From NCBI GenBank assembly GCA_963794945.1, contig CAWCFT010000001.1:224001-288000 (forward strand): a stretch of DNA of 64,000 nucleotides, read 5' to 3'. The translations under genes were made by a program, and so were the position numbers. This document shows, one piece after another, positions 44,177-47,035 of the stretch. Under the pieces are notes generated by a model. That model did not search any database and was not told the origin of the DNA. It saw nothing but the letters and a program-made list of their open reading frames with translations. Position 1 is the first letter of the stretch. Each line of letters opens with the position of its first letter. The stretch is from Endomicrobiales bacterium. Its GTDB lineage: Bacteria > Elusimicrobiota > Endomicrobiia > Endomicrobiales > CAWCFT01.

Positions 44177-44806
44177 CTATGCGGCCGGTGTTTGGTTCAT
44201 GGCCCTGATATGCCTGCGGATATACCAAAACGCACAGGCTAAAATGATGATACCTATCGCGGCATCGAACTTATGAAAATATACCCTGAGCGAATCCCAA
44301 TTCTCGCCCATTTTCACTCCTATCCAGGTGAGCAGAAGGCTCCATATATATGAACCGATAAAAGTGTAAGCTATGAAAGTTGACATCTTCATTTTAGAGA
44401 CGCCTGCCGGGAAAGCTATAAAAGTCCTTATTACTGGAAGCAGCCTCGCGGCAAATACAGTGATATTGCCCCAACGAGCGAACCAGCGGTCTGCCATGTC
44501 GAGGTCGTGGTGCGATATTAGGATGTATTTCCCATATTTTACTATCCATGCCCTGCCGCCCCACGCCCCTGCGTAATAGGCTACTATGGAACCCAGCACG
44601 CAGCCTATGGCGCCCATGAGCGCGACAAACCATATATTAAAGTGACCGGTAGCGACAAGGTACCCTGAAAACGGAAGAATAACTTCAGAGGGGAGCGGTA
44701 TACACGCGCTTTCTATGGCCATCAAGAGGGCAACGCCCGCGTAACCCATTGAATTGATAACACCTATAATGAACGCCGAAAGATAACCCAGACAATGCTC
44801 TACCAT
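44177..44806 (-). CDS. dedA: DedA family membrane protein
   Basis: IESACIPLPSE, RLLPVIRTFIAFPAG. Confidence 0.92.
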   Translation of the reverse strand: MVEHCLGYLSAFIIGVINSMGYAGVALLMAIESACIPLPSEVILPFSGYLVATGHFNIWFVALMGAIGCVLGSIVAYYAGAWGGRAWIVKYGKYILISHHDLDMADRWFARWGNITVFAARLLPVIRTFIAFPAGVSKMKMSTFIAYTFIGSYIWSLLLTWIGVKMGENWDSLRVYFHKFDAAIGIIILACAFWYIRRHIRAMNQTPAA

Positions 44807-44849
44807 TGAAGCTCCTTTATAGCAAATTGCAATTTTGATAAGCTTTCAT

Positions 44850-44878
44850 ATTTTAATACAACCGTCCGTATTTGTCAA
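44850..44878 (-). promoter_or_regulatory. sigma70 promoter of dedA; the -35 lies in the left terminal repeat of the structured element
   Basis: TTGACA-N17-TAAAAT. Confidence 0.65.
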
Positions 44879-45293
44879 ATGGGTCGCTCGGGATTGATTT
44901 TTAAAAAGACGGCGGGTATCGCAACCCGCCTTGACTTTGGCGGCTCCAGTAAGCAAAAGTTGCCGCCAAAACACTTTTTATAAAATCAATCCGTCGCTCC
45001 GCGGGTGAGCAAACACAAATCCTTTATCAGTCAAGGATTCGTGTCTGACTACTACACTTAAGAGACTTTCTAAATGCCCTTGGCGTAGACACCCCCGAGT
45101 TCTGACTGAAAAAGAACGCTGGGGGTGCTCACCCACCGAGCGCGGATAAAGTTTTCAAAAATGCCTCATGGCCGCGACTTTACATGCACAAGCGGCCGTG
45201 TGGAGCGGAGGAAGTGTGGAACGCCCCGTCTTTTTAAAAACTTTATCTGCGCGACCTCTTTTTGAAAATTATTTCGAGCGCCATTTGACAAAT
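44870..45293. other. Structured non-coding element: two diverged ~170-nt units in inverted orientation, bounded by a terminal inverted repeat
   Basis: Units 44882-45049 and rc(45085-45256) share GGTCGC, TTTTTAAAAAGACGG, CGCTC..GGGTGAGCA, a TCAGTC loop and GTGTCT, with covarying stems. Ends are ATTTGTCAAATGG / CCATTTGACAAAT. Confidence 0.75.
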
Positions 45294-45313
45294 GAAAAAT
45301 AATTTCTTATAAT
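45285..45313 (+). promoter_or_regulatory. Consensus sigma70 promoter of the hydrogenase operon
   Basis: TTGACA-N17-TATAAT. Confidence 0.8.
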
Positions 45314-45371
45314 CTTCAAACAATTTATTTACCTGCTCCTTAAAACACTTAAAGAGTTTGATTTTGGGTTT

Positions 45372-45437
45372 GCGGTCCGCAGGCTTGGCAAGGTTTACAA
45401 AACCCTGCAAGTTCGAAGGATCGGGACTTTTTTGTTT
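45372..45437 (+). promoter_or_regulatory. Candidate cis-regulatory RNA in the 5' UTR (possibly Na+/DUF1646-like riboswitch)
   Basis: GGCTTG-[GCAAGGTTT aca AAACCCTGC]-AAGT..GATCGGGAC followed by a U-tract; the family resemblance is from recall only. Confidence 0.3.
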
Positions 45438-45594
45438 ACCCGGTACCCCGCATCAATATCGCGCGGGCCATAAAAGCAAGGCACACTCAGGCAATTACAC
45501 TCCTCAGAACACGCCTTGAAACATCCGAAGACAAAATTTTAGGCAGCATTTTTAACGGACTACTTGGGCCGTTTTTATTTTTGCACATAACACT

Positions 45595-47035
45595 ATGAAC
45601 ATGAAACTTCTTATCATACTCACGATCTTCGTTCCGGTCCTTGGCGCTTTCATACTGCCTCTGGTGGGTTCAATATCTGAACGCCTCAGGAATGTTTCGG
45701 CTCTTGTCTTTGTGCTTACCTCACTTATATGTTCCTTTATAATGATACCATCAGTACTTTCCGGTCAAATAACAACCATTACACTCACACTGCCCATGGG
45801 ATTTAACTTCGTCCTCACGGCCGACATGCTGGCGGTTTTTATGGCGATAGTCTCTTCGCTCATCGGATCTATTATCGTCCTCTACTCTTTTGACTATATA
45901 AGCCACTACGAAAACCGCAACGAATACTATTTAATGGTAGTGCTCTTCCTTGGCTCCATGATGGGCATAGTTTTTTCGGCTAACCTTATATTCCTCTATT
46001 TGTTCTGGGAAATAACAGCCATAGCGTCTTGGAGGCTTATCGGTTTCTTCAGGGAAAAGAACTATGTACTCAAGGCAGATAAATCGTTCCTTGTGACCGC
46101 CTTCGGCGCGTTCATGATGCTTCTTGGTTTTATACTTGTTTACCAGCAGACAGGCTCTTTCGACCTTGCAGCCATTAAGGCCGTAATGAAGGTAAGCCCC
46201 TTGAGCAGTTTGGCCGTTGGCCTGATACTCTTCGGCATACTGTCCAAGTCCGCCACGCTTCCTTTCCACACATGGCTGCCGGACGCAGGCGTAGCGCCTT
46301 CACCCGTTACCGCCCTTCTTCACGCGGCCGTGCTTGTCAAGATAGGTGTTTACGTTTATGCGAGGCTTTTCATCTGCACTTTCTCTATTAACCCCATATG
46401 GCATAACGTCGTACCCATAATCGCCGGCTCAAGCGCGCTTGTATCAGCCGGAGCTGCGCTCATTGAAACAGAACATAAAAAGAATTATCGCTTATTCGAC
46501 TGTAAGCCAGATAGGCTTCATATTCCTCGGCCTTTCAGTTGGCGGAGAAATAGGCGTTGCAGGCGGGCTCCTATACATATTAATGCATGGCATAGCCAAA
46601 GGCGGCCTTTTCCTTTGTGCGGGCATTGTTGAACAGAAGACGCACATTAAGGATATAACCAAACTCGGCGGGCTAATATATACCATGCCGGTCACTGCCG
46701 TATCTTTCCTGTTATGCGCTTTCTCTGTTATGGGCATTCCCCCTTTCGGCGGCTTCTGGAGCAAATATATGGTAATAACAGGAGCGGTCTCCGCAAGACA
46801 GTTCACTATAGCGTCTGTTTTCATCGTGGGCGCTTTTTTAACGCTTATATATCTTTTTAGATTGTTCATGATGGTCTTCCTGGGTGAAGAAAAAGCCTCC
46901 AACCCAAGGGAAGGTTCAGTAACGATGGTTTCAAGCGTGGCCGCACTGGCGTTCATATCGCTTTTAGCCGGCGTGTTCATAAACTATATTGCCGGCCCGG
47001 TGCAGTTGACAGTGAAACAGATGTTGGGAATATAA
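45595..47035 (+). CDS. Antiporter-like subunit (MrpA/D, NuoL/M-like; +1 frameshift near 46472)
   Basis: FWE, KSATLPFHTWLPDA, KRIIAYSTVSQ, HGIAKG, PPFGGFWSK. Confidence 0.88.

Follow-up and report, generated by a model that had tools for sequence, protein, structure and literature searches.

Several families of small structured repeats have been described in bacterial genomes. In a 2024 review of prokaryotic MITEs, in the sections that deal with them, the ERIC/IRU sequences of enterobacteria and vibrios are imperfect palindromes of about 125 bp confined to intergenic transcribed DNA, their copy number is very variable among related genomes with presence or absence at orthologous sites, and their orientation affects host mRNA (PMC10969869). 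The same sections present the Correia/NEMIS elements of Neisseria as small non-coding repeats that lie immediately upstream of genes, form stable hairpins in transcripts and are associated with sigma-70-type promoters (PMC10969869). Bacterial MITEs, which derive from insertion sequences and include the QMITEs of Coxiella and Chunjie, appear there as small, non-coding, multi-copy elements preferring AT-rich intergenic targets, with direct repeats that fade with age and some copies nested in one another or located in 3′ UTRs (PMC10969869).

Here we describe a family of repeats in Elusimicrobiota that, judged against what those sections report, resembles ERIC/IRU in its size of about 125 bp, intergenic location, variable copy number, filled and empty orthologous sites and apparent orientation effect; no transposase is known for either. 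Unlike ERIC/IRU, it does not fold into a simple hairpin: the fold branches at a three-way junction and carries a conserved tandem mismatch. It is also common to classes of a phylum, made at least one exact 10-bp duplication and abuts a -35 box in many of its copies. With Correia/NEMIS, as characterised in the same sections, it has in common that small hairpin-forming repeats lie by genes and sigma-70-type promoters. Correia elements have true terminal inverted repeats, promoters inside the repeat and a TA target duplication, whereas here the inverted repeat is sub-terminal and the conserved sequence does not include the -10 box. Our preferred reading, to which we give a probability of roughly 60%, is that the two units at the present locus are old, diverged copies of an undescribed, dispersed, non-coding and strongly folded repeat family of Elusimicrobiota, a MITE/ERIC-like element that has been partly co-opted as a promoter-boundary element.

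In the window, the whole 64,000-nucleotide stretch of DNA that was analysed, a dedA/VTT-type gene pointing left and an mrp/nuo-type operon pointing right are 790 bp apart, and units A and B lie tail-to-tail in the gap. The features of the locus are as follows.

44177..44806, minus strand: gene for a DedA/VTT-domain membrane protein (left neighbour), an open reading frame with Pfam VTT_dom at E=1.9e-22, served by the left promoter.
44850..44878, minus strand: left sigma-70-type promoter, -35 TTGACA at 44878-44873, 17-nt spacer, -10 TAAAAT at 44855-44850, 11/12 consensus positions.
44884-45044, plus strand: unit A, whole, from folding and alignment.
44884..45012, plus strand: unit A core, 142.8 bits with covariance model R1 (see below), comprising the TCGCTC motif, P1, P2, P3 and the 3′ TCGCTC.
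44891-44908 with 44974-44992, plus strand: unit A P1, predicted fold.
44911-44917 with 44924-44930, plus strand: unit A P2, GGCGGGT/ACCCGCC, predicted fold.
44936-44944 with 44962-44970, plus strand: unit A P3, TTTGGCGGC/GCCGCCAAA, predicted fold.
45013..45044, plus strand: unit A accessory hairpin with loop TATCAGTC, predicted fold.
45254-45081, minus strand: unit B, whole, from folding and alignment.
45125..45254, minus strand: unit B core, 90.4 bits with R1, the most divergent copy of the host genome.
45252-45231 with 45161-45140, minus strand: unit B P1, predicted fold.
45227-45222 with 45207-45202, minus strand: unit B P2, GGGGCG/CGCTCC, predicted fold.
45200-45192 with 45175-45167, minus strand: unit B P3, CACGGCCGC/GCGGCCATG, predicted fold.
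45081..45135, minus strand: unit B accessory hairpin with loop TTTTCAGTC, predicted fold.
45256..45282, minus strand: solo 5′-arm fragment of a further copy (motif and 5′ strand of P1 only), from sequence reading.
45285..45313, plus strand: right sigma-70-type promoter, -35 TTGACA at 45285-45290, 17-nt spacer, -10 TATAAT at 45308-45313, 12/12 consensus positions.
45595..47035, plus strand: first Mrp/Nuo-type antiporter subunit gene (right neighbour), Pfam Proton_antipo_M and Proton_antipo_N, in two overlapping frames.

In each unit a P1 of 18-22 bp is predicted to close a three-way junction with P2 and P3, and a separate hairpin follows whose loop contains UCAGUC. The original prediction had placed an inverted pair of structured units with ordered common motifs here, and both points hold: folding reproduced every stem that it listed, and when unit A was aligned with the reverse complement of unit B, the motifs followed the order that had been given, with a mean column identity of 76%. 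Both units fold more stably than all 200 of their dinucleotide shuffles (z = -5.8 for A and -3.5 for B).

The left promoter fires leftwards, away from unit A, with its -35 box 5 nt from the 5′ edge of the unit. The right promoter fires rightwards and adjoins the solo 5′-arm fragment, which lies between it and unit B; the Mrp/Nuo-type gene is about 275 nt downstream. With 44871-44910 as its partner, this fragment encloses a 425-bp block in an inverted repeat that is imperfect and about 40 nt long; the two ends of the block have 13 identical bases in common, -35 box included. A long hairpin between A and B was considered and dropped, as whole-region folds retain the stems within the units and pair only the outer arms. 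The one metatranscriptome match to a 2-kb stretch of the locus was a single 222-nt contig at 44203-44424, inside the dedA-like gene only, and two sister metatranscriptome runs had nothing matching.

We considered whether A and B are independent, convergently transcribed genes of a multi-copy trans-acting sRNA family. Stable folds, conserved loop nucleotides and several copies per genome would suit such genes, as would one copy in genome G008 that lies directly after a tRNA gene on the same strand. Nevertheless, a promoter scan found no promoter facing into either unit, both consensus promoters facing outwards, and a -35 box within 5 nt of a unit's 5′ edge leaves no room for an inward one. Moreover, the folded strand has no U-tract terminator after either unit, the two are just 35 nt apart, and half of the family lies inside operons, flush with stop codons. 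We thus regard sRNA genes as improbable, and the non-coding RNA half of the original prediction (a new non-coding RNA or mobile element) does not survive in the form of an independent gene.

In line with the original prediction, no known RNA family was recognised. Rfam 15 had no match in 44700-45700 at E<=10, and the whole window at gathering scores returned only a tmRNA and three tRNAs, all elsewhere in the window. For 14 loci of other members of the repeat family there was likewise no Rfam match at E<=0.1. Unit A had no blastn match in plasmid and phage collections, and a full-text literature search returned nothing on such repeats in Elusimicrobia.

The host genome, a 2.9-Mb draft, contains nine copies by BLAST and nhmmer: A, B and seven others on six contigs. 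All nine have nhmmer E-values of 1.3e-15 or less, and the next match is at E=0.033. The core of the family measures 122-134 nt (a three-way junction of about 125 nt, longer in copies with insertions) and contains no open reading frame. One copy (L6) is without the second hairpin and another (L8) carries insertions; a hairpin comparable to the accessory hairpin follows seven of the nine.

A covariance model built from eight host-genome copies (R1) matched 5 of 61 genomes of the host order, host genome included, and 13 of 151 genomes sampled across Elusimicrobiota. Rebuilt from 48 members (R2), the model matched 18 of the 151, giving the further homologues that the original prediction had proposed to look for. 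Ten of the 11 genomes of the taxonomic family f19 have R2 matches, at least 22 of them in each of five genomes, compared to none in the 44 genomes of f10 and the 45 of f20. Copies per genome range from 8 to at least 22, and all matches but one span the whole model. We also ran a strict three-motif pattern over 185,579 species genomes, which gave 87 stretches, 80 of them listed as loci and scored with R1: eight were true members, found in three records titled Elusimicrobia or Elusimicrobiota, and the other 72 were chance matches in other phyla. The family is accordingly restricted to Elusimicrobiota in the searches made, which beyond the phylum consisted of this one strict pattern.

The fold is maintained by compensatory change. 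In the RNAalifold consensus of eight host-genome copies, 20 of 37 predicted pairs show such changes, and among the 48 aligned members all 37 model pairs do, which bears out the claim that the stems diverge while their pairing is kept. Paired cells amount to 87.9% in the 48 members compared to 61.9% in shuffles (0 of 500 reach the observed value) and to 39-56% when the partners are slid out of register; as the alignment was fitted to the model structure, these counts lean towards structure, although the margin is large. Across copies, it is the fold and a few loop and junction nucleotides that are kept, not the stem sequences: ACG after P1, CUCC and AAGUCG in the P3 loop, and CGCUCG on both sides of the P1 base. 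This is the reverse of the fixed scaffold with variable guide loops that had been suggested. Nor do the flanking genes scanned include the adjacent recombinase or nuclease that guide-RNA systems such as the IS110 bridge RNA or the TnpB/IscB omega-RNA would have.

The chemistry of the pairs is unusual. The 1,691 paired cells include 27 G-U and 34 A-C combinations, so that G-U is not the commoner of the two; the lack of an excess of G-U over A-C is atypical of RNA under structural selection. Mismatches in the same cells comprise 154 pyrimidine-pyrimidine against 16 purine-purine combinations. The pyrimidine mismatches form a conserved tandem UC/UC flanked by G-C, which occurs at the P1 base, in P2 and in the second hairpin, and at the P1 base explains the apparent direct repeats TCGCTC. 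On the complementary strand the tandem mismatch reads CGAG/CGAG, the context of tandem G-A pairs. In 45 of the 48 copies the predicted fold of the reverse complement is the more stable one, the difference being 6.6 kcal/mol under RNA and 2.0 under DNA parameters. A branched fold with compensatory change and without the wobble signature prompts one to ask which nucleic acid selection acts on.

Next, we compared orthologous spacers in two f19 genera with several genomes each.

def-fmt: filled in G064 by a 137-bp insert bracketed by AAAAAATGAA, whose 10 bp are duplicated exactly; no insert in G081, G083 and G071, where the genes overlap (ATGA).
PSP1-metG: filled in G087, where the duplication is about 12 bp long; no insert in G083 and G081, where the genes overlap.
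panD-x: filled in G079 and G064, by different subfamilies; empty in G081 and G083.
plsY-gpsA: full copies in G083 and G079, with P1 differing by three double changes; an internal-deletion remnant in G064.
lptA-lptB: filled in G083 and G064; in G079 deleted between AAAAAT repeats.

Besides the exact 10-bp duplication, there are two approximate ones, of about 12 bp with one indel and of about 8 bp. The insertion junctions have 0-2 extra bases on the 5′ side and A-rich tails on the 3′ side. In other genomes, the same f19 spacers hold unrelated heptamer-repeat hairpins. Tandem arrays, whose periods are 137 and 141 nt, are found in G005 (C9) and in G071 (C3 and C61). A number of copies are located at the ends of contigs, others are nested in the arms of further copies, and solo arms also occur. 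Of 13 old copies of the host order, 12 have no target duplication that could be detected, and one reaches p<0.05. Insertion polymorphism, target duplication, arrays and remnants all support the other half of the original prediction, a mobile element. We also considered the accC-gmhA spacer as an ancient fixed site and rejected it, since only the host genome has a copy there among 30 loci scored in the host order, though G081, from another class, is filled as well.

By analogy with MITEs, in the features listed for them above, the element is small, non-coding and multi-copy, with AT-rich intergenic targets, fading direct repeats, nested copies and some copies in 3′ UTRs, and its insertion polymorphism is seen at def-fmt, PSP1-metG and panD-x. 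Unlike MITEs, it has no parent insertion sequence that we found and no terminal inverted repeats, and its 3′ end is imprecise. In the def-fmt insert, P1 begins 8 nt inside the 5′ end and stops about 24 nt inside the 3′ end, and the outermost 6-mers are direct and not inverted repeats; with an inverted repeat that is not terminal and a variable 3′ boundary, the classic definition of a MITE does not apply. Furthermore, covariation is as strong in the internal hairpins P2 and P3 as in the outer stem; transposase binding at the ends would not call for this.

We found no terminal inverted repeats common to a parent insertion sequence, no half-elements flanking an open reading frame among the model matches and no autonomous parent. 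The tabulation of neighbouring genes that had been proposed turned up no transposase, recombinase or reverse transcriptase beside the copies examined. The 8 open reading frames flanking the window pair and the 13 flanking the seven other host-genome copies, 4 of which have no Pfam match, include no recombinase, nuclease or reverse transcriptase. The neighbours of the nine host-genome copies are housekeeping genes.

The REP/REPIN-RAYT systems are a further parallel: they too comprise long-lived families of extragenic repeats that are structured and commonly arranged as inverted pairs, and their hairpin is likewise conserved with compensatory change. The units of the present family differ in being much larger and branched, in their target duplications and in lacking a conserved GTAG-type head. 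The GTAG near both inner ends, which had been read as recalling HUH/REP-type elements, is indeed there in A and B but in no other host-genome copy. Mobilisation by a Y1 (HUH) transposase or a RAYT acting on the element as single-stranded DNA would fit strict Watson-Crick pairing without wobble excess and a conserved tandem mismatch in three helices, both of which would suit folded DNA. Y1_Tnp genes occur in 17 of 18 element-positive compared to 60 of 133 negative genomes, a co-occurrence that is weak and suggestive only, as related genomes are not independent samples. On the other hand, the insertions come with target duplications, which to our knowledge IS200/IS605-type transposition does not make. 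None of 19 Y1 loci has the element nearby (E<0.01), and the Y1-like genes of G083 and G008 are flanked by a different family, a perfect hairpin starting GGGGACGGTTCT. Finally, orientation is unrelated to GC skew in the host genome, where four plus-strand and three minus-strand copies lie in negative-skew DNA. We consider a REP-like element of this kind quite unlikely.

The variable duplications of 8-12 bp, the 0-2 extra bases at the 5′ junction and the A-rich 3′ tails would also be compatible with a retron-like or SINE-like element, in which a reverse transcriptase makes DNA from a folded RNA and the insertion of this DNA leaves duplications of varying length and a tail rich in A. By analogy, a P1 that closes two hairpins and a conserved G after its 5′ arm may recall the layout of retron non-coding RNA. 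This reading is weakened by the profile of reverse transcriptases: of the 18 element-positive genomes only 5 have RVT_1, which was found neither in the host genome nor in the three genomes with the most copies (G064, G071 and G079), and no reverse transcriptase gene lies beside any copy examined. Retro-mobility is accordingly the least probable of the explanations that we weighed.

About half of the family lies inside operons. In 23 of 48 copies, an open reading frame of at least 100 codons on the same strand ends -1 to 37 nt (mostly 0-10 nt) before the element. All but two of these 23 upstream frames have a Pfam match, with accC, def, fusA, lptA and plsY among them; panD is also among the genes. 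Most of the copies that are flush with a stop codon are then followed by a gene on the same strand, for example fmt, lptB, gpsA, metG or gmhA, and direct reading shows a copy in the groES-groEL spacer too. Copies inside operons are all sense-oriented. Outside the host order, 15 of 21 copies come directly after a same-strand stop codon and none of the 21 is antisense between genes, and f19 copies end in an AAGGTG-like A-rich tail located 8-30 nt before the next start codon.

This arrangement could suit a cis-acting RNA element with a host function in mRNAs (intercistronic processing, stability or translational coupling), its mobility being incidental or long past. The orientation counts outside the host order, the f19 tails before start codons and a fold kept across classes all speak for it, and the conserved CUCC of the P3 loop could pair with the Shine-Dalgarno sequence. 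However, each orthologous site that was examined can do without the element, the sister spacers being empty or occupied by unrelated hairpin repeats; its neighbours are unrelated housekeeping genes; the window copies lie upstream of outward promoters, outside any predicted transcript; and the G-U and A-C counts given above are atypical of RNA under structural selection. We hold such a function to be possible and rather unlikely.

A second setting of the element is next to promoters. In the host order, 10 of 26 copies, A and B included, have a promoter match of at least 10/12 with the -35 box 3-7 nt from their 5′ edge, and these promoters are on the opposite strand and fire away from the element. 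Such a match is seen in 0.34% of 2,084 control windows and in none of 22 copies outside the host order; a further case was found among five additional copies. The genes served are unrelated (dedA-like, mrp, H+-PPase, rplM, icd/leuB-type and clpB-type). Where the flanking genes are co-directional, which is the case for only five copies, the order is always upstream gene, reverse-oriented element, promoter and next gene.

This order, with the element reversed, precedes rplM-rpsI in G000, G005 and G008, that is, in three families, with a different upstream gene in each and with widely different stems. Among 30 rplM loci scored, only those of the host genome and G083 have a copy, together with that of G064 by coordinates; the f19 copies before rplM (G083 and G064) are both sense-oriented. 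One fold across classes and an rplM site occupied in three families are unusual for purely selfish DNA, and such conservation leaves room for a host RNA function.

How much of the promoter belongs to the repeat can be judged from alignments. The sequence CCC(C)A-N-TTGACA next to the motif is common to host-genome copies, and A and L2 match for eight bases further, so in these copies the adjoining -35 box may be part of the repeat. Their -10 boxes do not align, which leaves the -10 outside the conserved sequence, and the promoter spacers cannot be aligned between copies except at the orthologous rplM sites. Homology between copies in the promoter region is limited to a 14-nt match of B with L4; the similarity between the promoters of L4 and L233 of G005 was rejected as repeat homology, as it reflects orthology of the rplM promoter.

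Under the preferred reading of a MITE/ERIC-like repeat, the family would spread, or would once have spread, as a small non-autonomous mobile element that lands in narrow, neutral intergenic gaps and duplicates about 8-12 bp of target. Landed copies would then decay into arrays, nested copies and remnants, and the survivors would mark the only neutral zones that such compact genomes offer: after stop codons, before ribosome-binding sites and upstream of -35 boxes. Lineage-specific additions such as the second hairpin would have been built on a three-way-junction core of about 125 nt. The effect of the element would depend on its orientation. One orientation is carried inside operons, directly after the upstream stop codon, and in f19 also provides the next gene with a Shine-Dalgarno-like tail; the other is found only at transcription-unit boundaries, with the 5′ edge 3-7 bp upstream of a -35 box. 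From the orientation rule and the conservation at rplM one may suspect more than neutrality. The analysis shows the family, its fold and covariation, its distribution, the insertion polymorphism and the adjacency to promoters, whereas the mechanism of mobility, the insulator role set out below and the strand or nucleic acid that folds in the cell are inferred.

The tail-to-tail pair of the window would put one boundary-oriented copy before each of the divergent promoters, that of the dedA-like gene and that of the mrp/nuo-like operon. The strand read towards the promoter is predicted to form the more stable branched hairpin, which in the host genome would end in the P2 stem and a U-tract: on the reverse strand of all nine host-genome copies the P2 complement is followed by GUCUUUU, with a 3-nt spacer before the U run, and a scan flagged that of unit A as terminator-like. 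Such a hairpin would stop or cap incoming transcripts ahead of the promoter and thus act as an insulator, and a tail-to-tail pair would shield both promoters. In divergent contexts there is no known transcript entering the element, which counts against this role. Outside the host genome the insulator idea is weak, the promoter-adjacent copies of G005 and G008 being without the U-tract.

In a bolder version, which we find tentative at best, the family would be a mobile, orientation-dependent boundary module, partly domesticated across the phylum, that shields strong promoters (rplM-rpsI, mrp and H+-PPase among them) and is read through in operons. Its transposition route would be of neither known type, as it combines target duplications like those of DDE elements with conserved internal tandem-mismatch hairpins like those of single-strand (HUH-type) substrates.

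The present work introduces a hitherto undescribed family of structured repeats in a phylum that is mostly uncultivated and has been little studied, and the covariance model now lets annotators avoid calling its copies sRNA genes or riboswitches. The repeated, tight juxtaposition with consensus promoters, including the rplM arrangement kept in three families, merits specialist attention. If the boundary role is true, the family would clearly exemplify the domestication of mobile DNA as a promoter insulator in bacteria. If it is false, the repeat would still be a marker of genome dynamics, pointing to insertion hot spots at stop/start overlaps in the streamlined genomes of Elusimicrobiota.

Within the window, a leader of ~275 nt (45314-45594) separates the 12/12 promoter, a sigma-70-type promoter firing rightwards, from the start codon of the mrp-type gene; it has no match in an Rfam search of positions 44700-45700 (E<=10). 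This first Proton_antipo_M (Mrp/Nuo-type) gene (45595-47035) is made up of two overlapping frames, 45595-46632 and 46439-47035, a split that is probably a single-base assembly error.

Three element copies of genome G008 (L023, L026 and L033) carry a further conserved module on their 3′ side, consisting of TGCGATG, a short hairpin and AAACCTGAACC, followed in two cases by a terminator-like hairpin. We describe this module as a lineage-specific add-on, comparable to the second hairpin that follows the core in most copies of G000, the genome under study. Another G008 copy (L028, contig C31) starts directly 3′ of a tRNA gene and has the same orientation as that gene; a second, 5′-truncated copy comes after it. 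In G006, two near-identical copies (L016 and L019, C15, 41339-43061) lie 1.5 kb apart, facing away from one another. The palindrome ATGTTTCACGTGAAACAT precedes each of them, and the end of a B12-binding/radical-SAM ORF is found next to one.

Not all structured repeats in these genomes belong to the element. Intercistronic spacers shared by genomes of the element-rich family f19 are occupied by species-specific hairpins:

groES-groEL spacer: L059, L061, L062
fusA-x spacer: L089, L090, L092
lptA-lptB spacer: L074, L076

One arm consists of tandem 7-11-nt repeats (for example CGCAGAT, CACGAAT or ACGCGAAAC) and the other of their complement. These hairpins are a second class of intergenic structured repeat, unrelated to the element.

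Also distinct from the element is a further repeat, whose long perfect hairpin is based on GGGGACGGTTCT...AGAACCGTCCCC; it is found at:

2021-2120: L218 (G083:C7)
2156-2227: L225 (G008:C36)
downstream of L010 (G005:C8)

Separately, G000 encodes three identical IS200/IS605-type Y1 transposases of 154 aa:

C2:132520
C8:42970
C11:110065

At C8:39976-40049, 3 kb from one of these genes, the element is represented by a solo, degenerate 5′ arm, which likewise abuts a promoter-like TGgTAAAAT.

The perfect hairpin adjoins Y1_Tnp-like genes (220-235 aa) in genomes from two classes of the phylum, and together they look like a REP/RAYT-type pairing in Elusimicrobiota.
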